DNA of 64,000 nt from Nitrospinota bacterium (GTDB lineage: Bacteria; Nitrospinota_A; UBA7883). A model generated the notes under the pieces. The model made no database searches. It saw only the letters and a list, made by a program, of their open reading frames with translations, and was not told the DNA's origin. The translations under genes were made by a program, and so were the position numbers. This document shows, piece by piece, positions 4,636 to 45,320 of this stretch (within the stretch, counting starts at the first letter, position 1; the number at the start of each line of letters is the position of its first letter). The stretch covers positions 1-64,000 of the forward strand of contig JAOUMU010000002.1 of NCBI GenBank assembly GCA_029881335.1, given 5' to 3'.

Positions 4636-4645
4636 GGAGCGGCCG

Positions 4646-25764: not shown

Positions 25765-25840
25765 GCCCCCGTAGCTCAGGGGATAGAGCGCCGGATTCCT
25801 AATCCGTAGGTCGCAGGTTCAAATCCTGCCGGGGGTACCA
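25765..25840 (+). tRNA. tRNA-Arg (anticodon CCT) with encoded CCA
   Basis: Manual cloverleaf. Acceptor GCCCCCG / CGGGGGT (G1·U72). D-arm GCTC-AGGGGATA-GAGC. Anticodon arm CCGGA-TTCCTAA-TCCGT (U33, anticodon CCT, A37). T-arm GCAGG-TTCAAAT-CCTGC. Discriminator A73, then CCA. Confidence 0.8.
25795..25838 (+). repeat. attL: 44-bp core identical to 45277..45320 (anticodon loop to acceptor 3' end of tRNA-Arg)
   Basis: The exact 44/44 match ATTCCTAATCCGTAGGTCGCAGGTTCAAATCCTGCCGGGGGTAC was read directly. Confidence 0.9.
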
Positions 25841-26068
25841 TTAAATCAATGGGTTATCGGGTATAGCAAAAACCGGGTTATGGCCTAGTAAGCACCTGGT
25901 AAGCAGTACGTGGCAATTTCAAGCGTAAATTCAGATAAATTTCCATAGCCCTTTATATATCTAAACCGCCACTTTTGCCCTCCACCACGTCCATTGAAAC
26001 AATTTTTTTCCCCACCAGATCAAAAAAATTCCCGGCTCAAATATGGCCGGGAAGGGTATTTTTAAAGT

Positions 26069-26500
26069 TTAATCATCACCGTTATATCCCCAGACTTGAC
26101 GCCTTATTTGGTTCAATTCTTCCGGCGTTATTGTCCCAAGCTCAGGCTTTACCGGCTCAAGCTTTGTCGGCGCGTCCAGGCCGAGCAACTTGGCTTGACG
26201 CTCCATGGCCTTTAACATCAGACTGGCGGCCTTCCAATCCCCTTCCTTGGCTTTCTTGTAGCTTATGCCGATAATGGACTCCAGACGCAGAAGGGCGATA
26301 TCCCGCTCCATGATCGCTGTTTCATGGGTATCCGCGCGAATTGCCTCCAGCTCGCTTTTAATGTACTTGTGGACCATCACGGCGGAAACACCCAGCCGCT
26401 GGCCAATTTTCGCCAAGGTCAGCCCCTCCTTGCGAAGCTGGACCGCTTCCCTTTTCCGCTCCAGGGATATTACCTGCGTCTTACCTGTAATTTTTTTCAT
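26069..26500 (-). CDS. HTH DNA-binding protein (phage-type regulator or terminase-small-subunit-like)
   Basis: 143 aa. The LTLAKIGQRLGVSAVMVHKYIK helix-turn-helix is followed by a coiled-coil region. Confidence 0.5.
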   Translation of the reverse strand: MKKITGKTQVISLERKREAVQLRKEGLTLAKIGQRLGVSAVMVHKYIKSELEAIRADTHETAIMERDIALLRLESIIGISYKKAKEGDWKAASLMLKAMERQAKLLGLDAPTKLEPVKPELGTITPEELNQIRRQVWGYNGDD

Positions 26501-26790
26501 TTTTAACCTCTATGGTTAACCTATTATAACATATTTCATGTAGAATATGCTTAATTTGCTTAGGTTTTCTATTTGCCTTCCGTTTACCCTCGCTTAAAGT
26601 GTTCTATGGCTCCGAAAACCCGCCTGCAAGGCACGCTTCGCTCTGAAGGCCTTGAGGGCGGAACTTCTCCGCCATCTACGAACACTGCGAGGGACGAGAC
26701 GGAAACAGGTTAAATCAATATCCTTGTTAAAAATAGGTATTTAGAATATCCTTTCTTAGGGTGAGCGCTAAAGAAAGGATCGTTGCGTAA

Positions 26791-27966
26791 TTGAAAACCT
26801 TAAGAAAGGGAAAAAGAACCGGAGAGTTTGTTCTCAACGCCGTTGGTGGTGAACAGGTTCGCGCCTATCTGCCGCCACCACTGCCGCCAGAACCATCGCT
26901 CAATCTGGAAAAACTCTATGGTCTGATGGAAGACGCCAACAGGTCATTAGGACGGCTTGACGGCATCGCCTCAATCCTGCCGGACACTCCGTTATTCCTC
27001 TACATGTATGTCCGCAAGGAAGCGCTGCTTTCTTCCCAGATCGAAGGAACACAATCGTCCTTGTCTGACCTCTTGCTTTTTGAAAGCGATGAGGCTCCCG
27101 GAGCGCCGCTCGATGACGTCCAGGAAGTCTCCAATTACGTCGCCGCCATGAATTACGGGCTGGAGCGATTACGCGGCGGGTTTCCGTTATCGCTTCGGTT
27201 GATAAAAGAAATCCATGGAATCCTGCTTGCGATGGGGAGGGGGGCGACCAAGCAACCTGGTGAATTCCGGAGAAGTCAAAACTGGATCGGTGGCACACGT
27301 CCGGGCAATGCAATCTATGTTCCGCCGCCGCCCGACAAGGTGCTCGGTTGCATGGGTGAACTCGAAAAATTTATCTATGAGGAAGAGTCAAAGCTTCCAA
27401 CGCTAATCAAGGCGGCCCTGATCCATGTACAGTTTGAAAGCATTCACCCCTTCCTGGATGGTAACGGACGTTTGGGCCGGTTGCTCATCACTTTCCTTTT
27501 GTGCGCGGAAGGGGTTTTAAGCGAACCGATTCTTTATCTCAGTCTCTTTTTTAAAACGCATCGTCGCCGGTATTACGATCTTCTGCAAGACGTGCGTGAA
27601 GAAGGCGACTGGGAAGGGTGGCTGGAATTCTTTCTAACCGGCGTGAAAGAAACATCAGATCAGGCGGCGGAAGCGGCCCGCCGAATTCTTGCCGTTTTCG
27701 AGCGGGATCGGCGCAAGATCGAGGACCTTGGCCGACCAACCGCATCCGCGCTCAGAGTGCATCAATATCTGCAATCAAAACCGATTCTGTCTGTACCTGT
27801 CGCGACCAAGGCACTGGGCCTGACCGCTCCTACGGTCAGGAAATCCGTTGAGCATCTTCTGGAGCTGGGAGTCATGCGAGAGATCACCGGAAAAAAACGA
27901 GGCAAGTTATTCGTCTACGACGATTATCTCAACCTCCTCAATGAAGGAACGGAGCCGTTGCGATAA
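26791..27966 (+). CDS. Fic/DOC family protein (AMPylase-type fold) with a C-terminal winged-helix domain
   Basis: 391 aa with the canonical Fic motif HPFLDGNGRLGRLL. Its stop overlaps the SNF2 gene start (TAATG). Confidence 0.9.
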   Translation: MKTLRKGKRTGEFVLNAVGGEQVRAYLPPPLPPEPSLNLEKLYGLMEDANRSLGRLDGIASILPDTPLFLYMYVRKEALLSSQIEGTQSSLSDLLLFESDEAPGAPLDDVQEVSNYVAAMNYGLERLRGGFPLSLRLIKEIHGILLAMGRGATKQPGEFRRSQNWIGGTRPGNAIYVPPPPDKVLGCMGELEKFIYEEESKLPTLIKAALIHVQFESIHPFLDGNGRLGRLLITFLLCAEGVLSEPILYLSLFFKTHRRRYYDLLQDVREEGDWEGWLEFFLTGVKETSDQAAEAARRILAVFERDRRKIEDLGRPTASALRVHQYLQSKPILSVPVATKALGLTAPTVRKSVEHLLELGVMREITGKKRGKLFVYDDYLNLLNEGTEPLR

Positions 27967-30900
27967 TGCTACTCGATAACAAAAAGAACGGAAAGGTGGG
28001 TGACAAACTACGAACTCACTTAGCCAATGGCTCAAAGCTATCAATCATATCCGGTCTGTTTTCGATCTACGGTTTTGAATCTCTGAAAAAGGAACTGCAA
28101 AATATAGACGCTTTACGCCTTGTCTTGTCACAAAATCCAATAAACAGTAATTTGCAGGAAGCGGGAATTGCCTCCCTATCCGGAGACAGGTTTGAGCTAC
28201 GGTTCAAGAACCAGCTCAATCAGGCACAAGTTGCTAAAGAATGCGCTTCCTGGCTTAAAGAAAAAGCTGAAATACGTATAGCAACAAACCCCATGGCCAT
28301 AAGCCAAAATCTCTTTCACGTTCAAGAGGGGAATGGGGAAGCAATAGCCATTCAAGGCAGTTCCGAGTTCACCAGCACCGGTTTTGGATACACGGAAACT
28401 GACCGGTACCACATGAATACCTGCTCAACGGGCAAGGCAAGTACGATAGCAATGCTGGAGTGGTTTGAAGCCATCTGGGATGATCCATCGGCTGTTCAGG
28501 ATGCAAAGGAGCTACTTTTACGTCAGCTTTCCAACCTGACAAAGGATCATTCTCCTGAATTTATCTACTTTCTTACCCTCTACAACCTGTTTAAGGACTT
28601 CATCGAAGACATTGACGAAGACAACATTATCAAGGCCAAAACGGGATTCAAGGAAACCATCGTTTGGAAAAAGCTCTATAAATTTCAGCGCGACGGAGTC
28701 CTGGGTGCAATAGACAAAATCGAAAAATACAATGGTTGCATTATCGCAGACAGCGTGGGCTTGGGTAAAACTTTCGAGGCGTTGGCCGTTATCAAATATT
28801 ACGAGTTACGCAATGATCGCGTGCTTGTGCTATGCCCCAAAAAGCTAAGGGATAATTGGACGGTCTATACAGTAAACGACAAACGTAATCTGCTCGCCAA
28901 GGATCGGTTCAACTACGACGTTCTCAACCATACTGACCTGACCCGCCTGCAAGGCCGCTCTGGCGAAATCAATCTCGAAACCCTGAACTGGGGTAACTAC
29001 GATCTGGTTGTGATTGATGAGTCTCATAATTTCCGCAACAGCAGCTCATCAAGGGAAGGTCTTACCCGTTATTCCCGCCTGATGAATGAAATTATCCTAT
29101 CTGGCGTTAAAACCAAAGTCCTTATGCTTTCAGCCACTCCTGTTAATAGCCGAATGAACGACCTGAAGAATCAGGTCGCTTTTATTGCTGAAGGACTAGA
29201 TTTTGCCTACAGCGACTTCGGCATTGTAAGTATTGAGCAGACCTTGAAGAAAGCGCAAACCCGGTTTAATCAATGGCTCAAGCTGGACGATGAAAGCCGG
29301 TCGGTCGAAGGATTGCTTGACAGTATGAACTTCGATTACTTTAAGCTTCTGGACATTTTGACAATTGCCCGGTCGCGCAAGCACATTGAAAAATATTACG
29401 ACATAGCGGAGGTAGGCGATTTTCCCGAACGTCTAAAACCGATAAACATTAAGGAAGATATCGATAAGGGAGGGAAGTTTCCGCCCTTGGAAGAGATCAA
29501 CCGGAAGATTCGAAAGCTAAATCTCAGCGCTTATTCCCCACTTAAATATGTGCGAACAGAAAAGCGAGAGGAGTATAACCGCAAATACGATATCGAAGTA
29601 AAAGGCGGATCAATCTTTCGACAGGTTCACCGAGAACAAAGTCTGATCCACCTTATGCGAGTGAACCTGCTCAAACGCATGGAAAGCTCGATAAATTCAT
29701 TCAGCCTCACTTTGGGAAAGCTTCAGGGAGAGGTGGATCGCCTGATGGAAAAACTTGAAAACCACAGTAGCGAAGACCTCGAGGAGCTGGGGATCGAGGA
29801 TATTGAAGTCGATGAACCTGAATTTGACCCCTTCCTTATTGGCAAAAAAGTAAAGGTGCTAATCAAGGATTTGGACGAAGTTCGTTGGAAACAGGACCTT
29901 GAGGATGACCATGACAAACTGACCGAACTGCTATCAGAAGCACGAGACATCGAGGCGAAGCGCGATGCCAAGCTATACCGGTTACGCGCAATGATCGAGA
30001 ATAAATGCCAAAATCCGATCAATGACGGCAACCGCAAGATCATCGTCTTTACAGCTTTTACCGATACCGCCAATTATCTCTATGAACATCTTGCCGAGTG
30101 GGCAAAGGAGACCTTGGGCGTGTATTCGGCTAAAATCACAGGAAGCGGCACCAACAAGACTACAATGCCAGGCATGGGGAGCAACTTCGATACTCTTCTC
30201 GCTTCCTTTTCTCCAATCTCGAAGGAGCGGAGCAAAATAGACGAAGGGGCAACTGATGAAATTGACCTCCTGATCGCCACGGATTGCATATCTGAAGGGC
30301 AAAACCTTCAGGATTGCGATTATCTGATCAATTACGATATACACTGGAATCCAGTCCGCATCATTCAACGCTTTGGCCGCATAGACCGTCTTGGCTCAAA
30401 GAATAAGGTTATCCAACTCGTCAACTTCTGGCCAAACATGGAGCTGGATGAATATATCAACCTGGAAGCGCGGGTAAGCGGCCGTATGGTTCTTCTCGAT
30501 ATTTCCGCAACTGGCGAGGAAAATGTAATCGAGCAGGACACCACTGGCAAGATGAACGATCTTGAGTATCGGAGGAAACAGCTTCATCAGCTCAAGGATA
30601 CTGTCATCGATCTGGAAGATATATCGGGTGGCGTTTCAATCACCGATCTTACCCTAAACGATTTCCGGATGGACCTGTCCGCATTCATGAAGGAGCACTT
30701 GGGCGAATTGGAGCAATCACCCACCGGGCTTTATGCGGCCACGACGCTAGATTCCGAACTGCAAAAGGAAGAGCTGGAACCTGGTGTGATCTTTTGCCTG
30801 AAAAACATTGGCAAGACGGTTGCAGAGGAGGAAGGCTACGCGCTTGCTCCCTATTACATGGTCTACATCACCGACGATGGCCAGGTGAAATACACCTTCA

Positions 30901-31184
30901 CCCAGTCAAAGAGGATTCTTGACGTTCTGAAAAAGCATGGCCATGGGCAAAAACAAGCAGATGCCAAGGCCATTGAGCGCATGAACAAACGAACCAGAAA
31001 CGGCAAAGATATGAGCCATTACCGTTCGCTTTTGGAAACCGCCGTCAGTAGTATCGTAGGCAAGTCAGAAGAGAAGGGCGTAGAAAGCCTGTTCAGTCGT
31101 GGGGGAACCAACCTGACCAAGGAGAGTTTTCAGGGGATGGAAGACTTCGAGGTCATCAGCTACATGATTGTGAATACGCCATGA
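27966..31184 (+). CDS. SNF2-family helicase/ATPase with an N-terminal degenerate PLD-like domain
   Basis: 1072 aa. SNF2 motifs are ADSVGLGKTFEA (I), DLVVIDESHNFRN (II) and C-terminal QRFGRIDRLGS (VI). The N-terminal 150 aa carry an HKD-like segment HVQEGNGEAIAIQGSSEFT, with HxK degraded to HxQ. Confidence 0.85.
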   Translation: MLLDNKKNGKVGDKLRTHLANGSKLSIISGLFSIYGFESLKKELQNIDALRLVLSQNPINSNLQEAGIASLSGDRFELRFKNQLNQAQVAKECASWLKEKAEIRIATNPMAISQNLFHVQEGNGEAIAIQGSSEFTSTGFGYTETDRYHMNTCSTGKASTIAMLEWFEAIWDDPSAVQDAKELLLRQLSNLTKDHSPEFIYFLTLYNLFKDFIEDIDEDNIIKAKTGFKETIVWKKLYKFQRDGVLGAIDKIEKYNGCIIADSVGLGKTFEALAVIKYYELRNDRVLVLCPKKLRDNWTVYTVNDKRNLLAKDRFNYDVLNHTDLTRLQGRSGEINLETLNWGNYDLVVIDESHNFRNSSSSREGLTRYSRLMNEIILSGVKTKVLMLSATPVNSRMNDLKNQVAFIAEGLDFAYSDFGIVSIEQTLKKAQTRFNQWLKLDDESRSVEGLLDSMNFDYFKLLDILTIARSRKHIEKYYDIAEVGDFPERLKPINIKEDIDKGGKFPPLEEINRKIRKLNLSAYSPLKYVRTEKREEYNRKYDIEVKGGSIFRQVHREQSLIHLMRVNLLKRMESSINSFSLTLGKLQGEVDRLMEKLENHSSEDLEELGIEDIEVDEPEFDPFLIGKKVKVLIKDLDEVRWKQDLEDDHDKLTELLSEARDIEAKRDAKLYRLRAMIENKCQNPINDGNRKIIVFTAFTDTANYLYEHLAEWAKETLGVYSAKITGSGTNKTTMPGMGSNFDTLLASFSPISKERSKIDEGATDEIDLLIATDCISEGQNLQDCDYLINYDIHWNPVRIIQRFGRIDRLGSKNKVIQLVNFWPNMELDEYINLEARVSGRMVLLDISATGEENVIEQDTTGKMNDLEYRRKQLHQLKDTVIDLEDISGGVSITDLTLNDFRMDLSAFMKEHLGELEQSPTGLYAATTLDSELQKEELEPGVIFCLKNIGKTVAEEEGYALAPYYMVYITDDGQVKYTFTQSKRILDVLKKHGHGQKQADAKAIERMNKRTRNGKDMSHYRSLLETAVSSIVGKSEEKGVESLFSRGGTNLTKESFQGMEDFEVISYMIVNTP

Positions 31185-31939
31185 CCACAGCTATCACCCT
31201 CGATCAGTTCTACCAGAATATGGCCCTGCCGGAAGCATGCGCCCTTGGAAAGCGAATATTCAAAAAGCAGTTTTACGACAACGGCCAGCTAAACGCCGCC
31301 GACAAGAAGGCGTTTGTCGAGGATATAGAAAGCATCGAATGGCGTTACACGCTAAAACCCTCAACGATCAATATCCCCAAGCACGAAGACGAAACCCATG
31401 AATATCTGGAAGTGGCCATTCTTCAGGTTCTGCTTTCGGCTATGGGGAAAAGCGCACGAATCGCAATGGCCATGCAGAAAGCCATTCCTTATCCGGTTCT
31501 GATTGTCTTCGTTTACGGCGGCCAGCTTTCGCTTAACGTGGCGGAAAAGCGAATCAACCGCGCCGACAGCAACAAGATCGTTGTTGAGACCGCACACGAT
31601 AGCGGATGGATATCCTTGCAGGAACCGGAACAATGGCAGACCGATTTCTTCAATGATTTTCAAGTCACTAATTATTCCTTTCGCAACTTCTTTGACTTCT
31701 ATAAAGATATGGTGAAGCGGATCATAGCCCTGAACTGCGCCTGTCATACCGGTCAATATTCGCTAGGTACAAGCGTTGATAGGGTGGAAGCTTTGCGGCA
31801 GATGGAAAAGTTACAGCAGGAACGGAACGAGACCAGCAACTTGCTCAAAAAAGAAAAGAACCTGGGAACACAGGTTCAACTGAACACACGGATCAAACAG
31901 ATTACGGATCGCATAGAAGCGATTAAGGGCGAATTATGA
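31181..31939 (+). CDS. hypothetical protein; recalled as a DUF4391-like family member habitually encoded between SNF2 helicase and type III methyltransferase genes
   Basis: 252 aa. It overlaps the SNF2 stop by 4 bp (ATGA) and ends 5 bp before mod. The family assignment is by recollection only. Confidence 0.5.
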   Translation: MTTAITLDQFYQNMALPEACALGKRIFKKQFYDNGQLNAADKKAFVEDIESIEWRYTLKPSTINIPKHEDETHEYLEVAILQVLLSAMGKSARIAMAMQKAIPYPVLIVFVYGGQLSLNVAEKRINRADSNKIVVETAHDSGWISLQEPEQWQTDFFNDFQVTNYSFRNFFDFYKDMVKRIIALNCACHTGQYSLGTSVDRVEALRQMEKLQQERNETSNLLKKEKNLGTQVQLNTRIKQITDRIEAIKGEL

Positions 31940-31943
31940 GGGG

Positions 31944-33821
31944 ATGCGCATGGAAAAAATGACAAAGCAGGACGGCAAAAGCCTCGATATGGTGAAGGGG
32001 AATCTAGAAGCTTTAAAAACCATCTTCCCGGAAGCTTTTACAGAGGATGGCGTTAACTTTGAAACACTGCGGCAGTTGCTTGGCGACGAGGTTGATGATG
32101 GCGAGGAGAAATACGGTCTCAACTGGCATGGCAAGAAAAAGGCCCGCCAGATCGCATTGACTCCTTCTCTGGGAACTCTGCGCCCATGCCCGGAAGAGAG
32201 TGTCGATTGGAACACCACACAGAACCTCTTTATCGAAGGGGACAATCTGGAAGTCCTGAAGCTCTTGCAGAAAAGCTACGCCAACAAGGTCAAGATGATC
32301 TATATCGACCCGCCCTATAACACAGGGAAGGAGTTCATCTATCCCGACAAGTTCCAGGACAATCTTGATACATATCTCAAATATACCGGTCAGAAAGATG
32401 ATGAGGGGTTCAAGGTCAGCTCCAACACGGAAAGCTCAGGCAGGTACCACACCAACTGGTTGAATATGATATATCCCCGCTTAAAGCTAGCGAGGAATCT
32501 TCTTCGGGATGATGGGGTCATTTTTATCTCAATAGATGATAATGAATCTACAAACCTAAGGATAATTTGTAATGATATTTTTGGAGAAGAAAATTTCATT
32601 GGGTCATTAATATGGAAACGCCGAGTGTCATCAGCAATGGCTGATAATAACGTTTCATCTGATCACGACTATGTAGTTTGCTATCAAAAAGGCAATCTAA
32701 AAGGGTTTGCTGGATTTGAAAAGGATTTCAAAAGATATTCCAACCCAGATAATGATAAAAGAGGTCCTTGGATTTCAGACAATTTGACTGTAGGTATGAA
32801 TTCGTCAATGCGCCCTAATCAAGCGTATGATTTAGTCGATCCAAAAACAGGTAGTACATACCCATATAATCCTAATCGTGTTTGGGCTTTTATTCCAGAA
32901 ACGATGAATAGAATGATTGCTGAAGGCAGGATTATTTTCCCGGACGATCCTGCAAAGCGTCCAATGCAAAAACGATTTCAGAATGAGCTTAATAATACAC
33001 ACAACCCTTTTTCTACTTTGATGCTGGATAGAGTAGGGTTAAATACAGAGGCTACCCGGACTATCCAAGATGTAATGGAAAGGAATGTTTTCGAGTATTC
33101 AAAGCCTGTTTCACTGCTTAAAACATTAGTTCCGCAAATATGTGTAAGCAAAAACGATATAGTTTTAGACTTTTTTGCAGGTTCGTGTGTAACTGCTCAT
33201 GCAGTTCTGGACTTAAACAAAGATGGAGATGATAATCTCAAATTTGTCATGGTTCAGCTTCCAGAACCATGTGATGAAAAGTCAGAAGCATTCAAAGGAG
33301 GATATAAAACCATAGCAGACATTGGTAAAGAACGTATCCGCCGGGTAGCCGCTAAAATCAAGGAGGAAACTCCGTTATATCAAGGCGATCTTGGATTCAA
33401 GGTCTTCAAGCTCGATAGCAGTAACATCCAAACATGGAATCCGGACAGGGATGATCTGGAACAGACGCTTCTGGATCATGCGGATCATCTTGTGGAAGGG
33501 CGGAGCGAAGAGGATGTTCTCTATGAATTGCTCCTGAAGCGTGGTGTTGATCTGACCGTACCCATTGAGCAAAAGGAAGTATCCGGCAAGGCTGTTTATA
33601 GCATCGGTTATGGAGTGTTGTTCACTTGCCTGGACACCTCCATCAGCCGGGATGATGTGGAAAGCCTCGCCCAGGGGATCGTCGCATGGCATGAAGAGCT
33701 GAAGCCGGAGAGCGACACACAAGTGGTCTTTCGGGACAGCGCGTTCGCCGATGACATTGCAAAAACCAACATGACAGCCATTCTTGAACAGAACGGCATC
33801 GCTCATGTGCGTAGTCTGTGA
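31944..33821 (+). CDS. mod: type III restriction-modification Mod subunit (beta-class N6-adenine DNA methyltransferase)
   Basis: 625 aa. Motif IV is IYIDPPYNTG. Motif I is FFAGSCVTAHAV, in the C-terminal part (beta-class circular permutation). The middle region is the presumptive variable target-recognition domain. Confidence 0.88.
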   Translation: MRMEKMTKQDGKSLDMVKGNLEALKTIFPEAFTEDGVNFETLRQLLGDEVDDGEEKYGLNWHGKKKARQIALTPSLGTLRPCPEESVDWNTTQNLFIEGDNLEVLKLLQKSYANKVKMIYIDPPYNTGKEFIYPDKFQDNLDTYLKYTGQKDDEGFKVSSNTESSGRYHTNWLNMIYPRLKLARNLLRDDGVIFISIDDNESTNLRIICNDIFGEENFIGSLIWKRRVSSAMADNNVSSDHDYVVCYQKGNLKGFAGFEKDFKRYSNPDNDKRGPWISDNLTVGMNSSMRPNQAYDLVDPKTGSTYPYNPNRVWAFIPETMNRMIAEGRIIFPDDPAKRPMQKRFQNELNNTHNPFSTLMLDRVGLNTEATRTIQDVMERNVFEYSKPVSLLKTLVPQICVSKNDIVLDFFAGSCVTAHAVLDLNKDGDDNLKFVMVQLPEPCDEKSEAFKGGYKTIADIGKERIRRVAAKIKEETPLYQGDLGFKVFKLDSSNIQTWNPDRDDLEQTLLDHADHLVEGRSEEDVLYELLLKRGVDLTVPIEQKEVSGKAVYSIGYGVLFTCLDTSISRDDVESLAQGIVAWHEELKPESDTQVVFRDSAFADDIAKTNMTAILEQNGIAHVRSL

Positions 33822-36800: not shown

Positions 36801-36823
36801 ATGACATGATGAAGAATGGTTGA
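33818..36823 (+). CDS. res: type III restriction enzyme Res subunit (SF2 helicase plus C-terminal PD-(D/E)xK nuclease)
   Basis: 1001 aa. Walker A is METGTGKTY. DEAD-like motif II is IIVDEPQS. The C-terminal nuclease motif is YNPDW...VVETKGS. It overlaps mod by 4 bp. Confidence 0.88.
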   Translation: MSGDYYMKLHFEDNLEYQHAAIEAVADLFRGQDICRTEFTVTYQSDDGAQGRLGIAESELGIGNRLQLLDDEILKNLHDIQLRNGLPPSDSLANGDFTVEMETGTGKTYVYLRTIFELNKRYGFTKFVIVVPSVAIKEGTYKTLQITREHFENLFPIAKGYEYFLYDSGKLGQVRNFATSPNIQIMVVTVGAINKKDVNNLYKDSEKTGGEKPIYLVRATHPIIIVDEPQSVDGGMKGQGKKALEAMNPLCTLRYSATHVDKHHMLYRLDAVDAYDRELVKQIEVAALEVEGGHNKPYVKLVSTHNKKGSITAKVELDVQRGKNIRRDIVTVEDGDDLEQETGRAIYENFRIGTITCGKGNQSLDISMPGGEYTMQPGEEVGGVNPDDLKRLMIRRTIKEHLDKEIRFAAQKREVKVLSLFFVDSVEYYRSYDEDGNAVKGKYALMFEEEYRKLAKQADYHTLFEKIDLDTDASDVHNGYFSIDKKGGWTETAENNQSNRDSAERAYNLIMKDKEKLLSFDSKLKFIFSHSALKEGWDNPNVFQICALRDMGSERERRQTLGRGLRLCVNQEGLRLRGFDINTLTVIATESYEQFAENLQKEIEEDTGIRFGIVEKHQFATLPVTAEDGTTQPLGVEKSEKVWDFLKVNDYLDNRGKVQDSLKTALKENTLKIPEEFKEQEAGIKGILRKLAGKLDIKNADERVTVRTREAVLESEEFKALWDRIKHKTTYRVEFDNAKLIEDCGKAILAGPPITKTRAQFRMADIAIGKGGVEAKETATSGFTSINETDIELPDLLTDLQDKTSLKRRSLVEILTGCRRLNDFMKNPQEFIELATEAINRIKRLALVDGIRYRRVGDDHYYAQELFQQEELTGYLKNTLETQKSVYERVVYDSAGVEKRFVEDLEGNEAVKVYAKLPGWFKVPTPLGTYNPDWAVLVEIDGQEKLYFVVETKGSNWWDDLRHKEGAKIKCGEKHFAVLAEGDNPAKYIKATCVDDMMKNG

Positions 36824-36835
36824 GGGATATTAGAA

Positions 36836-37051
36836 ATGATGGAAGATAATAAGCCACTCAATGTGCAAGTCACCTCCAAAGAAACACCCACTCTTTTAAA
36901 TACTGACCGCCTTCGGTTGCACTTGAAAGAAGATGGATTGGCAGTGGCTTTACTTGACGTATGGCTTGATGATCCAAAACTCGATAATCAGGCGCGTATG
37001 CTTCAAATTATCGATAGTTATCATAAAAAAAAGCAAGTGAACGATGGCTAG
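36836..37051 (+). CDS. small hypothetical protein (71 aa), translationally coupled to the downstream ABC ATPase
   Basis: It starts 13 bp after the res stop. Its stop overlaps the ATPase start (ATGGCTAG). Confidence 0.5.
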   Translation: MMEDNKPLNVQVTSKETPTLLNTDRLRLHLKEDGLAVALLDVWLDDPKLDNQARMLQIIDSYHKKKQVNDG

Positions 37052-39566
37052 GCCCCAACTACGAAAAATTGAAATCCAGGGATTCCGTAGCTTTGGCTCT
37101 GGGAAACAATCATTTGAATTATCCCAAACTGTATCGGTCCTTTGGGGTGGGAATAGCCAAGGTAAAACGAGCCTTGCCGAAGCTATTGAATTCCTTTTTA
37201 GTGGCCAAATCGCCCGTCGCGAGTTGCTAGCCAGTACGAAGGACGAGTTTTCAGACTCACTCCGAAACGCTCATATCCCTAATACACTCCCTGTTTTTGT
37301 ATCCGCTGAAATAGTATGTGCTGACGGAAAAATAAGGCAATTAAAGCGCGTATTGAGCGAGGATTACAAGAAAGGAAACCATGGATGTATCAGCACACTG
37401 GAAATTGATGGACTTCTTTGCCTAGATGGCGATATTGAAACAAAATTGGGTATTAAGCTCTTCCAAGCACCCCTAAGCTCACCAGTGCTGGCCCAACACA
37501 CTCTTGGATATATATTTTCCGCTGGCCCAAATGATCGCTCCACCTATTTTAGGGCTGTGCTGGATACACAGGATTTAGAAGATTTCCGTGCGGCTATTGC
37601 CGCCCTATCAGAGTATATTCCCACACCAGTCCTAAAAGAAAATGGACTCTTGCATGCTATCGAGATCATACCAGAGCTGGGTAATACAAGCAGTGCCATA
37701 CGGAAATCCAAATCGCTGTCCAATTTAGAGAATAGTTTACTTGATGCAACAACTGCTCTCCTAACCAGCCTGGGGCTTAATCCACAAGATCAGCTTGCGG
37801 CACAGGCTATACAGATCGAGGAGGAGTTAATAAAAAGACGTGCAAAGTCATTTCCCCTCGATCTGTTTACCAAATCCTCCTTCGTGCCATGGGATAAGAA
37901 TTCAGGTAGCTTGGATCAACACATTAAAATATTTTACGAGGAACGCGCTAAAATTGACGTGGAAACCCGAAGACTTGTCGATTTATTCAAGATGGCTTTG
38001 CTATTGCCTGAAGCCAGTAATGAGCCTGAAGTAGCAAACTGTCCATTATGTGGCACGATTGACGCTTTAACGCCAAAGCGCATCCATGCGATACGCGAAC
38101 AGGTTAAAGATACAGAAATATACCAAGCGGCCGAGAAAGATATCTGTCAAACTCTACAAGCAATATCAACAAGGTTGTCTTCCTTGACTACAGCTCTGGA
38201 TTCCTCTTTGCCAAAATTTATTTTGGAACAACCACAGGCCAGACGTGCAAAAGGATTTACCGTAACCCGCATGCGTGACCTCGTGAATGATGCAGCCATG
38301 GTTACAAATTGGCTTGTTCCTACACGCCAAATTATCCGTGCTTCAGTAACCTTTAGAAAATCAATTATCGATGCACAAACAACTATCAATACTGTCATAG
38401 ACAGTCTAGATATATGGAACGATAAAACATCGATAACCCGTGCACTCGATAAAGTTAAATCAGCTCAAGATGTATATGCACAAAGCATCGATAATTATAC
38501 GCAAGTGGCAGAGTTGCTCGTCGGGCCACTGAAGAGTGCTGTTGACCAAAGCACGAACACTAAAGGCTGGGAAGAACTGGCCAAGCTGGCACACAGTCCT
38601 ACCGCCTTGTGGAATGCACTTGTAGAAACGGCCACGTATGAGCAGAAGAAGAAAGACCTTAACAGGGCACTCAAGGAAATTGACGCTGGCAATGGCAGGG
38701 TTGCGGATGATAAATTCGCCGATATGAGCACAGAAGTTAAAAAATGGTGGGATTATTTGCGACCTGATGAAACAACATTCTTTGATGCTGTGCAACGGCG
38801 TAGCACAAAAGCACGGCGAAATATTGACATTAAAGTCGGCCTTTCTGCTACTGAAGATCGTAGCAATCCGGCATTCCGAAATGCTGTTGCCGTATTTAGT
38901 CAATCGCAATTGCATTGCCTTGGTCTTTCGATGTTCCTAGCCCGAGCTGTGCAAGCTAAAACGGGATTCATTGTAATGGATGATCCTGTTTTGACTAGCG
39001 ATGACGATTTTAGACCTAATTTTGCTTCAACTGTCATCGAGGGTCTGTTGAATGAAGGGGTGCAATCCATAATTCTGACACAAGATCATTCGAGCTGGAA
39101 AGATATTGGACATCGTTGGGTACACCGCGATGTTGCCCAATTTCAAATTGTGTGCAACAACCCACTTTTGGGAACTGAAATCAGAAATCAGAATGATGGT
39201 CTTGCTACTATGATTGCAAGGGCACAGCCATTTGTTAAATCACACGACCTTGACCAACAAAAAACAGGTGCTACCCAAATACGATTATCTATCGAACGTT
39301 TCGGTAAAGAAATTCTTGTACGGAAAAGTCGCCTTGACGGTAACCAGATAGCTTCCATAACTGACTATGACGGAAAGAACTTCGGTGAATTCAGTAATTC
39401 TGTTTATGCCCTTCTCACAAAAGACCCTGCTCATCCAGGCAAGCTGAAGGCTGCGCATTCATACGTTACGCCAGGGGCACACGACGATACTCCTCCATCG
39501 TCAGGCAAGCTTTCAACGGCACTTGGAGACCTGAAGAAAATGAAGCGCGACTATCTAGACTCATAA
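37044..39566 (+). CDS. Rad50/SbcC-like ABC ATPase with a coiled-coil insertion and a CxxC zinc-hook motif; candidate RloC-like anticodon nuclease or other defence ATPase
   Basis: 840 aa. Walker A is GGNSQGKTS near the N-terminus. A long helical middle region contains CPLCG near residue 330. A signature-like QLHCLGLS and Walker B FIVMDDP are followed by an extra C-terminal domain of about 170 aa containing an R-x3-E...H pattern (IRLSIER ... DPAH). Confidence 0.6.
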   Translation: MARPQLRKIEIQGFRSFGSGKQSFELSQTVSVLWGGNSQGKTSLAEAIEFLFSGQIARRELLASTKDEFSDSLRNAHIPNTLPVFVSAEIVCADGKIRQLKRVLSEDYKKGNHGCISTLEIDGLLCLDGDIETKLGIKLFQAPLSSPVLAQHTLGYIFSAGPNDRSTYFRAVLDTQDLEDFRAAIAALSEYIPTPVLKENGLLHAIEIIPELGNTSSAIRKSKSLSNLENSLLDATTALLTSLGLNPQDQLAAQAIQIEEELIKRRAKSFPLDLFTKSSFVPWDKNSGSLDQHIKIFYEERAKIDVETRRLVDLFKMALLLPEASNEPEVANCPLCGTIDALTPKRIHAIREQVKDTEIYQAAEKDICQTLQAISTRLSSLTTALDSSLPKFILEQPQARRAKGFTVTRMRDLVNDAAMVTNWLVPTRQIIRASVTFRKSIIDAQTTINTVIDSLDIWNDKTSITRALDKVKSAQDVYAQSIDNYTQVAELLVGPLKSAVDQSTNTKGWEELAKLAHSPTALWNALVETATYEQKKKDLNRALKEIDAGNGRVADDKFADMSTEVKKWWDYLRPDETTFFDAVQRRSTKARRNIDIKVGLSATEDRSNPAFRNAVAVFSQSQLHCLGLSMFLARAVQAKTGFIVMDDPVLTSDDDFRPNFASTVIEGLLNEGVQSIILTQDHSSWKDIGHRWVHRDVAQFQIVCNNPLLGTEIRNQNDGLATMIARAQPFVKSHDLDQQKTGATQIRLSIERFGKEILVRKSRLDGNQIASITDYDGKNFGEFSNSVYALLTKDPAHPGKLKAAHSYVTPGAHDDTPPSSGKLSTALGDLKKMKRDYLDS

Positions 39567-40020: not shown

Positions 40021-40047
40021 CAAAAAGATAGGGGGCGCGAGCCCCCC
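40021..40047 (-). terminator. rho-independent terminator for the minus-strand primase operon
   Basis: A GC hairpin GGGGGC-GCGA-GCCCCC (40031..40047) is followed, on the minus strand, by TATCTTTTTG. It lies 10 bp downstream of the primase stop. Confidence 0.6.
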
Positions 40048-40057
40048 ATCGTTTGGC

Positions 40058-42652
<2,595 letters not shown>

Positions 42653-42756
42653 CTTTTCGTTCCATCAAGTAATGTTGATAATCAACGGCAACCGCGCCGC
42701 TTAAAGGATATAAAATCACACTCTCGATGATATAAAAAACTACCATTTCTATTTAT

Positions 42757-42873
42757 GGTAGGTTTGTTTTTGAGGTAGGTTTATTCGAGCGTGTATTGGA
42801 GCGGGTTTTATGTGATACCTATCTTGAGAATATTTCGATCCGAGGTAGGTTTTAGAGGGAAAAGGTAGGTATT
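42757..42873. promoter_or_regulatory. four direct iteron-like repeats GGTAGGT(T/A)T plus a palindrome TACCAT-N8-ATGGTA upstream of the alpA-primase operon
   Basis: Copies were read at 42757, 42774, 42844 and 42864. The palindrome at 42741..42760 overlaps the first copy. Confidence 0.55.
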
Positions 42874-43597
42874 AATTTGGCGATTCTTGCTTTCGCGGAC
42901 GGCCATGCGGCTTTTTACCGGTTTGCCGAATAGTTTTTTTGAGCGTAATATCTGAATATTCGTGAACTGGAAACTGCGTTCTATCTTTATATTTGCCCTC
43001 CCGATAAAGGCGGATTAATTCGTCATGAGTTGAGCTGGGATTTTCCTTCACAAGGCGATTGAGAACACCAAAGCGTTCCGCCGCCTTGGCTTGGCGTGTC
43101 TGCTTCCCTTTGACCGGCGATTCGATGCGCCACATGGATTCCTGCGCCTGGGCTTTGCGATTCTTCGGAAAAAGGAAGGCGGGCTGTTGGTGAAGGCGCT
43201 TTGCTAGGTCTTTCAATATATCGCGGGATACCTTTGTTTCATACAGAAACATATCCTGCCATATCATCCTGCCATCGATGACTGTTGGTTGTCCTGCTTG
43301 CTTTCCTATGTTCAAAAAGGCCTTCGCTTGCAGGTTCATATGATTACTATATGGTCTTGCATAGTTTTCAGATAATGGCGATTCAGCATATTCGCGACTA
43401 TCCAAAGCGCCAATAATGAGGGAGAGTATTTTTCCGACACATAATGGGATTTCGCTCTCTCTCAAGGGCGATACTTTTATTCCTCCAATATGTTGTGGCG
43501 GCGCAAAACCACACCAAAGAAAACATACCTCGTATAGAGTAAAAGATCCATCAACCTTCAACTGTTCATAGTCATTATCGGTCAGTGGCTTCAGCAT
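42872..43597 (-). CDS. hypothetical island protein
   Basis: 241-aa ORF between the integrase and the alpA operon. No recognisable motif was found. Confidence 0.5.
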   Translation of the reverse strand: MLKPLTDNDYEQLKVDGSFTLYEVCFLWCGFAPPQHIGGIKVSPLRESEIPLCVGKILSLIIGALDSREYAESPLSENYARPYSNHMNLQAKAFLNIGKQAGQPTVIDGRMIWQDMFLYETKVSRDILKDLAKRLHQQPAFLFPKNRKAQAQESMWRIESPVKGKQTRQAKAAERFGVLNRLVKENPSSTHDELIRLYREGKYKDRTQFPVHEYSDITLKKTIRQTGKKPHGRPRKQESPN

Positions 43598-43811
43598 CGC
43601 GCCCTCCTTCCGGCGCCCTGAAATAAGATATTGACCGGCGGGGCTGGTTCAGGAAAGCCAGCTTTTCGGGGATCAACCTAGCCGGTCAAAGTGTAGCAAA
43701 AATAGCATGAATAGCAATTGCAGGCCGCCAAAGCGAATTATCGCGCCAAGGCTAGCGGATGCCGTTAAGTCAATCTATTGGCAGTAATGGCAGTGGCTTT
43801 ACCTTAGGTAT

Positions 43812-45074
43812 TTAATCAATCCCGCCCGCTTTCTTGAATGGCAGAACGTCCGCGCCACCTTTTCGCCCGGCCCGTGTAAGGATTGCGTCCGTTATCCTTT
43901 GCATGGGCGCCCTTAGCCTTTCCGCGTCGTGAACTATATAGCCCTCCGTCACGTCTCCGGCCTGCTTGTGGTTCAATAATCGCTTCAAAGCGTATCCGCT
44001 TATGTCCAGGCTTTCCGCCACCGTGGCGAATGTCCGCCGCAAGTCATGGACAGTAAACTTCACCCCAGATATGGCTGTTATCTTCTTCATTTGGCGCCGG
44101 GGCTCCATAAGGTGGCCGGTTTTGCTTCTATCTGGGAATACATATTCACTTGATAGGTTCGCACCACGGCGCCGGTCCAGCATTTCATAAACCATATCGC
44201 TCATGGGCAAGGTTAGCGGCTGGCTGTTCTTTGTGTCCGTTATGGTGAAGGTCTTTTCTGCCATATCAACATCGGCCCATTTCAAATGGGCCGCCTCTTG
44301 CCGTCTTAATCCCGTAAAGAGAATCAATTCCAGATAATCCGGGACAACTTCCGTTGTCTTTGTGCTTTCCATCAATTCGCTTCTTAGCGCGTCCAGAGCG
44401 TCAAGAAACACGCCAAGGCTTGAATCCTTAATGTAGGTCCGTTTCCTGTCCACTTTATACCAAGCTCGTGTTTCGGAAAGACGCTTGACGGGATTTACCT
44501 GCAATAGCGGCTGGCCATCGTTTGTTTCGTATTTTGCCATCGCGAAATTGAAAACCGCCCGCAATACCCTCATGGCCTGATTCCCCTGGGCGGGGCCGTG
44601 ATCCTTGGCGATATCAGCATGGCGTTGTTGAATCATGTTCTTAGTAATTCCCCTTACCTGCTTCCCCAGCCAATCGCCAAACCGCTTTTCCACTTGGTAC
44701 CTATAATCAAGAACTGTCCGGGGCTTTAATTGTTTCCGCGCCATCATATATTCATCAAACGCTTCCCTTAACGTCACCTGGGCCGCTCTGGCCGCTTGCT
44801 TTTCCGCCATGGGGTCCACGCCCTGGGTCATTTCCGAAAGCCGTTGTAATGCCATTGAGCGGGCTTGGTCCGGAGTTAATTTCCCATGCTTCCCTAAGGT
44901 AACCCTTACTGAGCGGCCTGATACGCGTGATTGAACAACATACACCTTCCCGGAAGGAACAACCTTTACACCGAAGCCTTGCAAAGCCTTATCCCAATAA
45001 AAGACCGATTTCCCCGGCTCTGTAACGGGGGGAAGACCGTCAACCGCCGATTTTGTGATCTTCATTTTCGCCAT
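43812..45074 (-). CDS. int: tyrosine-type site-specific integrase (P4-like, with an N-terminal DUF4102 arm-binding domain)
   Basis: 420 aa. The N-terminus is GLPPVTEPGKSVFYWDKALQGFGVKVVPSGKVYVVQSRV (Arm-DNA-bind type). The C-terminal catalytic region carries the R...HDLRRTF...Y pattern. Confidence 0.9.
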   Translation of the reverse strand: MAKMKITKSAVDGLPPVTEPGKSVFYWDKALQGFGVKVVPSGKVYVVQSRVSGRSVRVTLGKHGKLTPDQARSMALQRLSEMTQGVDPMAEKQAARAAQVTLREAFDEYMMARKQLKPRTVLDYRYQVEKRFGDWLGKQVRGITKNMIQQRHADIAKDHGPAQGNQAMRVLRAVFNFAMAKYETNDGQPLLQVNPVKRLSETRAWYKVDRKRTYIKDSSLGVFLDALDALRSELMESTKTTEVVPDYLELILFTGLRRQEAAHLKWADVDMAEKTFTITDTKNSQPLTLPMSDMVYEMLDRRRGANLSSEYVFPDRSKTGHLMEPRRQMKKITAISGVKFTVHDLRRTFATVAESLDISGYALKRLLNHKQAGDVTEGYIVHDAERLRAPMQRITDAILTRAGRKGGADVLPFKKAGGID

Positions 45075-45276
45075 TTCCGCCTTGCCTCCGATAATCGGTT
45101 TCTGCTTACTAGAAATCCTAGTAAGCGCCTAGTAAGCGCCGCGTGGAAATATGTAGGGCTGGCTGTACAACCCTGTATAACGGAACATCTTCAAATAATG
45201 GCGTAAATAAAGGCGATTGTCAACTATGTGGATATTTATATCACTGGGTAAAACCCAGTAAACCGGGCCATATTCA

Positions 45277-45320
45277 AATTCCTAATCCGTAGGTCGCAGG
45301 TTCAAATCCTGCCGGGGGTA
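45277..45320 (+). repeat. attR: duplicated 3' 44 bp of tRNA-Arg
   Basis: Exact match to 25795..25838. It is followed by TTTTT instead of CCA. Confidence 0.9.

Follow-up and report, generated by a model that had tools for sequence, protein, structure and literature searches.

The window analyzed here, a 64,000-nt stretch of DNA from an uncultured Nitrospinota bacterium, raises the question of what kind of element follows its tRNA-Arg(CCT) gene, and what that element carries. The sequence-only reading had proposed a P4-like island bounded by exact 44-bp att copies of the tRNA 3′ end. ARAGORN placed the single tRNA of the window, tRNA-Arg(CCT), at 25765..25840 on the plus strand, in agreement with this reading, and its score with Rfam RF00005 was 68.9 bits. 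This gene, the integration target, is intact and has its CCA encoded, while element DNA now follows its 3′ part. The 44-nt core ATTCCTAATCCGTAGGTCGCAGGTTCAAATCCTGCCGGGGGTAC, which starts in the anticodon loop and ends on the first C of the CCA, is exact (44/44 identity) in attL (25795..25838, plus strand) and attR (45278..45321, plus strand). The attR copy corresponds to the displaced original tRNA 3′ part; it has no encoded CCA and is followed by host DNA (TTTTTCTAC...). Hence, the proposed exact repeat stood, while the position given earlier for attR, 45277-45320, was one base off. The match is also unique to the element ends, as had been presumed, because a repeat search of the window gave only these two copies on both strands, even with up to three mismatches, against none expected from 100 shuffles. 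The island, 19,483 bp from core to core, is AT-richer than its surroundings, with a GC content of 0.477 inside (25841-45277) versus 0.555 outside, and its tetranucleotide distance to the flanks is about doubled (24-34 inside versus 10-16 outside). The tRNA, the att cores, the composition and the gene calls together bear out an island that is bounded by an integrase and inserted at the 3′ end of tRNA-Arg(CCT), and each gene named in the sequence-only reading was found with Pfam, PADLOC or the list of open reading frames.

The tyrosine integrase gene (43812..45074, minus strand), recognized by its Pfam Phage_integrase and Arm-DNA-bind_3 domains, lies 204 nt from attR. Aligned to P4 Int, with which it shares 22% identity (E 4e-4), the protein shows all of the catalytic residues R, H-x-x-R, H and Y. 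The comparison of k-mers between both element ends detected arm-type repeats. The 9-mer CTAGTAAGC has exactly four copies in the 64 kb, none of them more than about 175 nt away from an att core; three are at the integrase start and one is just past attL. The three exact repeats, one inverted and two direct, form the P arm at 45104..45137, which precedes the int start codon by 30-63 nt, while the candidate arm-type sites of the P′ arm (25885..25904, plus strand), which are CTAGTAAGC and the one-mismatch copy CTGGTAAGC, are located 47-66 nt beyond the core. The fact that CTAGTAAGC is confined to the vicinity of the cores on both ends argues that the two ends belong to one element. The arm-binding domain, the similarity to P4 Int and the P4-like attP layout make the integrase one of the P4 type, when this term is used in its broad sense. 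The best sigma-70-like promoter match of the island (45195..45223, minus strand; TTGACA-17-CATTAT), which is a consensus match only, is positioned to drive int. Downstream of int, between this gene and a 241-aa ORF, is an int-alpA RNA motif (Rfam RF02996; 43616..43688, minus strand), which scored 37.7 bits versus the Rfam gathering score of 35.8, and 61.9 bits in a related element, L005.

Integrases 60-79% identical to that of the island were found at three loci of Nitrospinota MAGs (L001, L002 and L005). In both L001 and L002, part of a tRNA-Arg 3′ end lies about 200 nt ahead of int; it starts at the same position of the anticodon loop as the island core or no more than one base away, and each of the two loci has triple repeats of its own where int starts. 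In L005 such a tRNA-Arg fragment is located where the element meets a second integrase element. The backbone order is kept in L001 (identities of 63% for Int, 50% for AlpA, 65% for the zinc ribbon and 37% for the primase), and the AlpA-like protein is 50-58% identical in L001 and L002.

The leftward backbone consists, in order, of the integrase, the int-alpA RNA, the 241-aa ORF, an AlpA-like gene, a zinc-ribbon gene and a Toprim-DUF3987 gene. The 241-aa ORF (42872..43597, minus strand) had no family match in Pfam, PADLOC or PHROGs and a weak match in L002 only; ORFs of similar size are at the same position in related elements. The AlpA/Vis-like HTH_17 protein (42419..42652, minus strand; phrog_66 excisionase) is assigned to excision or regulation, the CHC2 zinc-ribbon primase domain is encoded by a separate gene (42145..42429, minus strand; Pfam Zn_ribbon_DnaG, E 1.2e-14), and the Toprim and DUF3987 primase/helicase (40058..42148, minus strand; Pfam DUF3987, E 1.5e-95; PHROG helicase/primase) is assigned to replication. 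These Pfam and PHROG assignments support the maintenance module of integrase, AlpA and primase that had been claimed. The strongest terminator-like hairpin of the island (40027..40050, minus strand), with a 10-bp stem and then a T-run, is 8 nt past the stop codon of the primase gene and marks where the backbone operon ends. Near attL, a gene at 26069..26500 on the minus strand encodes a 143-aa HTH DNA-binding protein, a candidate regulator with weak Pfam HTH_23/Sigma70_r4 matches and a match to phrog_645, and just beyond its stop codon is a GC-rich terminator-like hairpin with T-runs on both sides (26029..26053). This gene was also considered as a small terminase, which was rejected, as its phage homologues are late-genome HTH proteins. 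The HTH gene, the 241-aa ORF, the arm-type repeats and the int-alpA RNA were absent from the feature list of the sequence-only reading.

The cargo is one rightward operon of seven genes, which overlap or are 4-12 nt apart. The Fic, SNF2, DUF4391, Mod, Res, small ORF and ATPase genes that had been proposed as defence cargo were all detected (Pfam, PADLOC), the catalytic motifs read from the translations are all intact, and the operon comprises three separable modules with putative defence activities: a SoFic-like Fic, an SNF2-DUF4391-Mod-Res cassette, and a small ORF with an RloC-like ATPase. The Fic AMPylase (26791..27966, plus strand; Pfam Fic_N and Fic) matches the PADLOC SoFic model over its full length (E 1.4e-123) with an intact HPFLDGNGRLGR motif, and its stop codon overlaps the SNF2 start. 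It differs from SoFic in its score of 154 bits versus the NCBIfam equivalog cut-off of 550, the Res match being likewise under its equivalog cut-off, and in lacking a small antitoxin gene of the AS1 kind downstream (PMC12249575). The 1072-aa SNF2-family helicase (27966..31184, plus strand; Pfam SNF2-rel_dom/Helicase_C) matches PADLOC C3a139 "HKD+Snf2" (E 7.7e-134), and in its N-terminal PLD-like domain H-x-Q replaces H-x-K, as seen in the alignment of five homologues. The DUF4391 protein (31181..31939, plus strand; Pfam PF14335, E 2e-68) was predicted by AF2 (pLDDT 86) to have an alpha/beta N-domain and a C-terminal helical coiled coil; the predicted structure gave no confident fold match, and no function is described for DUF4391 in open-access papers. 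The type III Mod methyltransferase (31944..33821, plus strand; Pfam N6_N4_Mtase, DPPY motif) and the Res helicase-endonuclease (33818..36823, plus strand; Pfam ResIII and RE_endonuc) match the PADLOC MTase_III (E 5.5e-226) and REase_III (1256.7 bits) models over their full length. In this and in their intact motifs they resemble EcoP15I-type III R-M, but here Mod-Res is preceded by the SNF2 protein with its degenerate PLD-like N-domain and by DUF4391. The SNF2 and DUF4391 order ahead of Mod-Res is kept in every other context examined (bacteria and one archaeon), and Acinetobacter, Shewanella and archaeal plasmids all carry the four genes in this order. Another genome has a copy with SNF2, DUF4391 and Res 90-92% identical and Mod 70% identical; neither the island backbone nor SoFic nor the ATPase accompanies it. 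The four genes of the cassette move together as one unit among distant hosts.

The last module consists of a 71-aa ORF taken from the ORF list (36836..37051, plus strand), which overlaps by 8 nt the start of its partner, an 840-aa Rad50/SMC-like ABC ATPase (37044..39566, plus strand; Pfam SMC_N/AAA_23). A homologue of the ATPase on a Bradyrhizobium plasmid also has its start overlapped by a small ORF. The family alignment showed that the CxxC hook (C333/C336) and the C-terminal R747-x3-E751...H813 are invariant, which, compared with the definition of RloC (PMC2610378), lends support to the earlier guess of an RloC-like protein. The ATPase resembles RloC in its ABC ATPase head and coiled-coil insert with the CxxC, in its C-terminal domain with R-x3-E...H, in its length of about 800-840 aa and in its site beside an R-M locus (PMC2610378). 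On the other hand, its Glu-His spacing is 61 residues versus the published 36-52 (PMC2610378), it has no Pfam AAA_13 match, which is present in only 4 of 16 relatives, and it is paired with a small upstream ORF, while its best PADLOC similarity is to LmuB of Lamassu. The ATPase is most likely an RloC-type anticodon nuclease.

We consider it highly probable that the locus is an integrative island, inserted into the 3′ part of tRNA-Arg(CCT) by a P4/arm-binding-type tyrosine integrase and carrying this three-module defence cargo. The circular element would have carried an attP with a 44-nt copy of the tRNA 3′ part and arm-type integrase sites on either side. Recombination with the chromosomal gene would have rebuilt an intact tRNA at attL, with the CCA end now encoded by the element, and moved the original 3′ part out to attR. 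The leftward operon, closed by the strong terminator, would provide maintenance functions, with the AlpA-like protein as a predicted excision regulator and the split primase, zinc ribbon and then Toprim-DUF3987 helicase, serving replication. In the cargo, the SoFic-like AMPylase would be expected to work via abortive infection, and the small ORF with the zinc-hook ATPase would most likely act as an RloC-type anticodon nuclease. No empty attB site and no circular form or attP junction was found in any collection searched, and so we infer insertion and mobility from the anatomy alone. What the sequence data show directly is the anatomy, the homologies and the modular make-up of the cargo; excision and replication in the present day, a possible need for a helper phage and every defence activity are deduced.

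The island could alternatively be a true phage satellite of the PICMI/PICI kind, with helper-induced, AlpA-dependent excision, replication by the DUF3987 primase and packaging in helper capsids, in which case the cargo would shield the host from competing phages. The published PICMI model has four mandatory markers, of which the island has three, the integrase, AlpA (PF12728) and the DUF3987 primase. SatelliteFinder labels this set Type C PICI, but the authors of the classifier hold the three genes alone to be ambiguous (PMC10085698), and the backbone is such an ambiguous "Type C PICI"/PICMI-like set. The int-alpA RNA, the small integrase elements arrayed in tandem at a site of this kind in L005, and the fact that satellites are known as defence hotspots are also in keeping with a satellite. 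However, Pfam and PHROGs gave no gene for packaging or for redirecting capsids (TerS, Sid, Psu, Delta, Ppi or Rpp), a small terminase was rejected for the HTH gene, no P4 cos site was found, IMG/VR contained no relatives of the integrase or primase, and 19.5 kb is large for the minimalist class, which makes this reading doubtful.

It is still less likely that the island is a fixed relic, integrated long ago and no longer mobile, whose neighborhood has since been rearranged. In the nearest relative, in which RNase R is 88% and the amidohydrolase 92% identical, tRNA-Ser(GGA) comes after the left flank, and the block of the right flank is found in inverted orientation, joined to DNA which in the window lies 5 kb further on. 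Because synteny is broken at both island ends, the locus is rearranged and is not readable as a simple insertion into a conserved neighborhood. This and the failure to find an empty site or circle in the collections searched could suggest a relic, but the att cores are identical, three of the arm repeats are exact copies, the open frames of all backbone and cargo genes are full-length and keep their motifs, and the base composition shows no drift in the direction of the host. In a second assembly, ERZ27296367 (84-kb contig), which like SRR7132271 belongs to the source metagenome, the right flank, attR, int and the following genes to the ATPase are present; on the attL side, the contig concerned ends 79 nt short of the tRNA, and this junction is found in a single assembly. 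A metagenomic chimera, in which the element of another organism was joined to this chromosome through common tRNA sequence, would fit the metagenome-assembled source, the breaks of other assemblies at 25,686, inside attR (45,294) and near 33.66 kb, and the cassette at 90-92% identity in another genome, but it is very improbable, as an independent k=141 assembly covers the right flank, attR, int and about 11.6 kb of the island, the 44-nt repeat is shorter than the k-mer of 141, the arm motif beside attL matches those beside int, and related integrases in other Nitrospinota MAGs adjoin the same tRNA-Arg fragment.

Phage P4 and PICMI are close known systems. P4 likewise has an arm-binding tyrosine integrase that uses the 3′ part of a tRNA gene as its target, and in both elements int shares its strand with genes for an AlpA/Vis-type HTH protein and a primase-helicase. 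The attP layout agrees too, with three arm repeats where int starts, then the core after about 110-140 nt, and a further two arm repeats some 50 nt past the core. The low identity of the Int proteins is a difference, and so are the host, Nitrospinota instead of an enterobacterium, the core of 44 nt reaching the anticodon loop instead of the annotated 20 nt, and the replication protein, which has DUF3987 in place of the helicase domain of P4 alpha and only the Toprim region in common with it. No Psu, Sid, Delta or epsilon homologues were detected in the island (Pfam, PHROGs), and it has no P4 cos site. The earlier assignment to P4-like satellites was therefore rejected by the published rule, because at most three of the seven core genes are present. 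The likeness to PICMI of Vibrionaceae (PMC10803314) and to Type C PICI (PMC10085698) lies in the integrase (PF00589), AlpA (PF12728) and the DUF3987 primase (PF13148). PICMI, however, is located next to fis and has about 6 genes, while the island, for which no helper phage is known, is in tRNA-Arg and has 14 genes in about 19.5 kb. As a tRNA-inserted defence island, it belongs to an ordinary, known kind of genomic island.

The island has the anatomy of an integrated element. Its attP is of the P4 type, and both its backbone operon and its cargo operon, which is built of separable modules, are intact. The ends of the island were defined by a repeat search together with tRNA prediction. The tRNA-Arg(CCT) gene at 25765-25840 on the plus strand, which is the sole tRNA gene of the window according to ARAGORN, is intact and scored 68.9 bits with Rfam. 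Its 3′ part (25795-25838) is identical in 44/44 nt to the sequence at 45278-45321, and the two copies form a direct repeat. The 44-nt block begins one base before the anticodon loop and ends at the first C of the CCA. The exact 44-bp repeat at both ends, which had been proposed in a sequence-only reading, was borne out together with the position of attL, while attR had been placed one base too low. The match is also limited to the element ends: only two copies were found in 64 kb when both strands were searched with up to 3 mismatches, and none would be expected by chance. The GC content of the island interior is 47.7%, compared to 55.5% outside, which agrees with the AT-richness noticed earlier. 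Consistently, the tetranucleotide distance to the flanks was 24-34 inside the island and 10-16 in flank windows, which is a two- to threefold difference. The integrase gene lies 204 nt from attR. Hence, three features of a tRNA-integrated element were found, which are a repeat with an intact tRNA gene, a recombinase gene beside one end and a deviating composition.

The sequences that continue beyond the two cores indicate which DNA came from the element. On the attL side the tRNA gene runs on as CCA-TTAAATCAAT, with arm repeats beyond, which suggests that the DNA to the right of attL is element-derived. The attR copy retains just the first C, which is followed by TTTTT (45321-45326), and after the core come TTTTTCTAC and host genes. 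These continuations suggest that the original tRNA gene did not encode CCA, while the rebuilt gene does; the integration is thus predicted to have turned a CCA-less tRNA gene into a CCA-encoding one, with the CCA supplied by the element. The predicted attB junction is GAGCGCCGG followed by the 44-nt core ATTCCTAATCCGTAGGTCGCAGGTTCAAATCCTGCCGGGGGTAC and TTTTTCTACTGTATACC, and the predicted attP junction is GGGCCATATTCAA followed by the same core and CATTAAATCAATGGGTTATCGGG.

The putative arm sites of the integrase are among the features that the sequence-only reading did not contain, the others being an int-alpA RNA and related integrase loci in Nitrospinota. The 9-mer CTAGTAAGC is present in exactly four copies in the window, where about 0.5 would be expected in 64 kb. 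Three copies, one inverted and two direct, occupy 45104-45137 and precede the integrase start by 30-63 nt, while the fourth copy at 25885 and a one-mismatch copy at 25896 are located 47-66 nt past the attL core. Because the 9-mer is present at both ends, it links the left end with the end that contains the integrase gene. In the annotated attP of P4 the arrangement is the same: three arm repeats lie at the int start, the core comes after some 110 nt, and two more repeats lie about 55 nt past the core. This layout also fits the arm-binding domain of the integrase.

To find the empty site and other copies of the element, several databases were searched. JGI metagenome contigs contained neither the exact attB junction pattern nor the full tRNA, no copy of the attP junction was present in IMG/VR, and exact-protein look-ups of both flanking genes returned the same strain only. 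The flank proteins are 100% identical to proteins of a Nitrospinota bacterium MAG. IMG/VR contained no relatives of the island integrase or primase, and neither the island nor its primase had a nucleotide match in E. coli genomes. The nearest relative was found via homologues of the flanking genes (RNase R 88% and amidohydrolase 92% identical). Its left flank corresponds to that of the window through the final gene that precedes the tRNA, and then continues with tRNA-Ser(GGA) and unrelated genes. On the right side, the block 45764-48662 has the opposite orientation and directly adjoins DNA that corresponds to the window from 53624 onwards, and the region 48739-53500, which contains a Vsr-like gene, an MFS transporter gene and HD-domain genes, is missing there. 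Because synteny is broken at both island ends, no empty site could be read from this relative. In the comparison of window 25316-25764 and 45322-53623 with loci L013 and L020, the rearrangement breakpoints coincide with the tRNA/att region. Independent support was obtained for the attR junction, because the order from the right flank through attR and the integrase to the ATPase is also present on an 84-kb contig of a second assembly, from another sample. This support concerns attR only, as the corresponding contig on the attL side stops 79 nt before the tRNA.

Several further observations were made around these junctions. In independent assemblies of this strain, breaks occur at about 25686, which is 79 nt before the tRNA, at about 33660, which is the Mod/Res boundary, and at 45294, inside attR; these breaks may reflect population heterogeneity or sequence common to other genomes of the community. 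The genes at 21109-22578 and 23029-24519 are paralogues that encode proteins of 489 and 496 aa and are about 67% identical at the nucleotide level; a gene of about 160 aa is located near each of them. As only one copy is present in locus L020, the pair appears to have arisen by tandem duplication at this place, immediately left of the tRNA. On the right side, the gene at 48739-49263 (minus strand) encodes a Vsr-type mismatch endonuclease fused to an MTES_1575/DUF559-like nuclease domain, and there was no adjoining cytosine methyltransferase gene in the few neighboring ORFs scanned.

The gene families were assigned by scanning the island ORFs with Pfam, PADLOC, NCBIfam and PHROGs, and every gene that had been named from the sequence was recovered in these scans. 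The backbone genes are all on the minus strand. In order from attR, they encode a tyrosine integrase with Arm-DNA-bind_3 and Phage_integrase domains and its catalytic residues present (43812-45074), a 241-aa ORF with no family match (42872-43597), an HTH_17/AlpA-like protein (42419-42652), a separate CHC2 zinc-ribbon protein (42145-42429), and a Toprim+DUF3987 protein (40058-42148), which is followed after 8 nt by the strongest terminator-like hairpin of the island. The plus-strand cargo consists of genes for a SoFic-like Fic protein (26791-27966), an SNF2 helicase (27966-31184), a DUF4391 protein (31181-31939), a type III Mod (31944-33821), a type III Res (33818-36823), a 71-aa ORF (36836-37051) and an 840-aa SMC-like ATPase (37044-39566). 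These seven genes overlap or are spaced by 4-12 nt, and can thus be read as a single operon. In the translated sequences, no catalytic motif of Fic, SNF2, Mod, Res or the integrase is disrupted. Near attL, a 143-aa HTH protein is encoded on the minus strand (26069-26500); its assignment as a small terminase was rejected, because the homologues found in phages are late-genome HTH proteins, and some of these carry the wrong label "RNase E". The 105-aa ORF at 39642-39959 had no family match in Pfam, PADLOC or PHROGs and was taken as probably non-coding.

An int-alpA RNA (Rfam RF02996) is located in the region between the integrase gene and the 241-aa ORF (43616-43688, minus strand). It is 124 nt downstream of int and 18 nt upstream of the ATG of the 241-aa ORF. 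Its score of 37.7 bits is just above the gathering score of 35.8. This motif has been reported mainly from Proteobacteria; the host of the island belongs to Nitrospinota. Integrases 60-79% identical to that of the island are encoded at three loci from Nitrospinota metagenome-assembled genomes (L001, L002 and L005). The RNA motif was found in L005 (1769-1839) with 61.9 bits, while the search with the Rfam motif did not detect it in L001 or L002. A partial tRNA-Arg 3′ fragment is located about 200 nt upstream of int in L001 and L002; the fragment of L001 has the same start in the anticodon loop as the window repeat, while the starts in L002 and L005 differ from it by at most one base. Element-specific triple repeats adjoin this fragment, which are CCAAGTAATC in L001 and CATGTAGGCA in L002. 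The backbone order in L001 is the same as in the island, with identities of 63% for Int, 50% for AlpA, 65% for the zinc ribbon and 37% for the primase, and the 241-aa ORF has no significant similarity to the ORFs at the same position in L001 and L005. The region 1-5473 of L005 is a tandem array at the tRNA-Arg fragment (4132-4186). It contains a small element, with an integrase C-terminus 79% identical to that of the island, the int-alpA RNA and AlpA, which ends at the fragment and has no match to the window primase. A second integrase, 27% identical, follows directly after the fragment (4538-5473).

The SNF2-DUF4391-Mod-Res cassette contains the genes of a type III restriction-modification system, with Mod and Res adjacent, intact and with their motifs present. 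Mod matched PADLOC MTase_III (E = 5.5e-226) and Res matched REase_III (1256.7 bits), both over the full length, while the score of Res against the NCBIfam Res equivalog was 384 bits, under the cut-off of 564. A copy of the cassette was found at a locus of another genome (L021), with identities of 92% for SNF2, 90% for DUF4391, 70% for Mod and 92% for Res. It is located between efflux and housekeeping genes, a Bro-N gene is inserted between Mod and Res in its Mod-Res region (L021, 10770-13565), and its neighborhood contains no integrase, SoFic or ATPase gene, which argues that the cassette is a self-contained unit that moves between hosts. The divergence of Mod is concentrated in its middle part, and the 70% identity suggests that the two copies could differ in the target-recognition region. 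DUF4391 homologues were also found on Acinetobacter, Shewanella and Methanomethylovorans plasmids, in the order helicase, DUF4391, methyltransferase and Res-like helicase. In these three plasmid copies the identity of DUF4391 was 32-40%, compared to 47-72% for SNF2 and Res, so DUF4391 diverges faster. On the Acinetobacter gerneri plasmid (L010, 1-5608) the cassette directly follows Tn7-like tnsA, a Mu-type transposase gene, tniB and tniQ, and there it appears to be the cargo of a different kind of mobile element. The cassette is widespread and moves as a unit across distant hosts, and two of its four genes are without published function; the literature on DUF4391/PF14335 yielded nothing functional.

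Other assignments of the cassette proteins and of Fic were also considered. The Hma system consists of HmaA with DUF3883 and a helicase, HmaB with DUF1156, and HmaC with DUF499 (PMC11232893). None of these three signature domains was found, and the HmaA match was partial (E = 1.3e-25), so this assignment was rejected. DISARM, the core of which is DrmA and DrmB (DUF1998) with DrmD/DrmMI or DrmC, was rejected as well, because the DrmD-like match of SNF2 was just partial and scored 165.8 bits, where the cut-off is 610, and there was no DrmA- or DrmB-like gene. The SNF2 protein matched the PADLOC candidate model "HKD+Snf2" over its full length. Its N-terminal domain (27966-28655) has the PLD-like motif H-x-Q...GS(S/A)xF, and in five homologues the His and GS are kept while the Lys of HxK is never present. 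This makes a nuclease role of the domain doubtful, and suggests that it may be non-catalytic or altered. The Fic protein has Fic_N and Fic domains with an intact HxFx(D/E)GNGRxxR motif, and it matched PADLOC SoFic (E = 1.4e-123), while its score against the NCBIfam SoFic equivalog was 154 bits, far under the cut-off of 550.

The ATPase at the end of the cargo operon was compared with known anti-phage proteins. Its best PADLOC similarity was to Lamassu LmuB (E = 1.6e-18), but a Lamassu system was rejected because there was no LmuA-like gene nearby and the sole partner is the 71-aa ORF. A scan of 1.84 billion representative proteins identified about 200 clusters of relatives at E < 1e-30, nearly all of them 830-860 aa long. 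In an alignment of 16 members the Walker motifs were invariant, as were CxxC at 333-336 (C333, C336) in the middle of the coiled-coil region and, in the C-terminal domain, R747-x3-E751 and H813-D814. The SMC_N match covers residues 6-683. RloC combines an ABC ATPase with a Rad50-like coiled coil that bears a CXXC zinc hook, its C-terminal part contains an Arg-X3-Glu-X36-52-His triad, and it is sometimes linked to type I or III restriction-modification loci (PMC2610378). The island protein resembles this plan in its ABC ATPase, the CXXC hook in the coiled coil and the R-x3-E...H triad, although its Glu-His spacing is 61 residues (R747-x3-E751-x61-H813), different from the published 36-52. Pfam AAA_13 had no match on the island ATPase and matched 4 of the 16 relatives. 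Because of the spacing, the lack of an AAA_13 match and the LmuB best match, we call the 840-aa protein RloC-like and treat it as a candidate RloC, and from the sequence the family of about 200 zinc-hook ATPase clusters looks like distant RloC relatives. In a Bradyrhizobium plasmid homologue, located beside an AbiE module, a small ORF also overlaps the start of the ATPase gene.

These data suggest a working model of how the element is maintained and how its cargo could act. Int, guided by the arm and core sites, would have integrated a circular form into the tRNA-Arg gene. AlpA, and perhaps also the int-alpA RNA, would control excision, and the excised form would be replicated by the split primase/DUF3987 helicase. 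The cargo would provide layered protection, in which methylation-dependent restriction is helped or modified by SNF2 and DUF4391, and two suicide-type effectors, which act by Fic AMPylation and tRNA cleavage, would serve as backup. A tentative and rather unlikely reading is that SNF2 and DUF4391 define an uncharacterized four-component type III-like class of restriction in bacteria and archaea, with the seven cargo genes possibly forming one layered system. The cassette appears to be translationally coupled to the Fic toxin on one side and to the candidate RloC-like anticodon nuclease on the other, which is why the seven genes might act as one layered system. DUF4391 could be the part that interacts with the invader, because it has no recognizable fold relative and evolves faster than its partners. 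PrrC monitors EcoprrI, and by analogy the suicide modules might watch the restriction complex. To our knowledge, mobile elements of Nitrospinota have been little described, and the island is a clean, fully annotated example with a complete attP-like architecture and an int-alpA RNA. Of greater interest are two leads from the cargo, the cassette and the zinc-hook ATPase family.

The island had been described as P4-like, with a maintenance set typical of P4-like satellites and PICI-like elements. In a broad sense the P4-like description holds, for the integrase class, the tRNA target, the attP architecture, the AlpA/Vis-type protein and the primase-helicase. It does not hold for membership in the satellite family, which is defined by at least five of the seven genes int, psu, delta, sid, alpA, epsilon and alpha (SatelliteFinder, PMC10085698), because int and alpA are the only P4 core genes found in the island. 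Their pairwise similarity to P4 is weak (integrase against P4 Int, E = 4e-4; AlpA against ORF88, E = 4e-3), and the replication protein aligns with P4 alpha in the Toprim region alone (E = 1e-3), its helicase part being DUF3987. No Pfam or PHROG match to psu, delta, sid or epsilon was found on any island ORF, and the P4 cos 19-mer was absent even with 3 mismatches. PICIs have five core components, at least four of which are needed for Type A or B; int, AlpA and primase alone form a "Type C PICI", a class described as ambiguous, which may comprise satellites, other mobile elements or chance clusters (PMC10085698). The island has just these three components, with no capsid-morphogenesis or packaging genes by Pfam or PHROGs, so the PICI-like maintenance set is present but stays below the Type A/B threshold. 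By gene families, the closest defined model is that of PICMIs, which is int, AlpA (PF05930/PF12728) and a primase with DUF3987/DUF5906 (PMC10803314), and the island has PF00589, PF12728 and PF13148. PICMIs lie beside fis, comprise about six genes and are known only from Vibrionaceae (PMC10803314), whereas the island is integrated in tRNA-Arg and has 14 genes over 19.5 kb. Helper-phage dependence is possible, and if true it would extend satellite biology to a new phylum. The observation made from the sequence was real and mostly well interpreted, and the better label should be an int-alpA-primase integrative island with a P4-type integration module. Integrase-bounded defense islands that target tRNA genes are a textbook class of mobile elements, and the island is another instance of this well-known kind.
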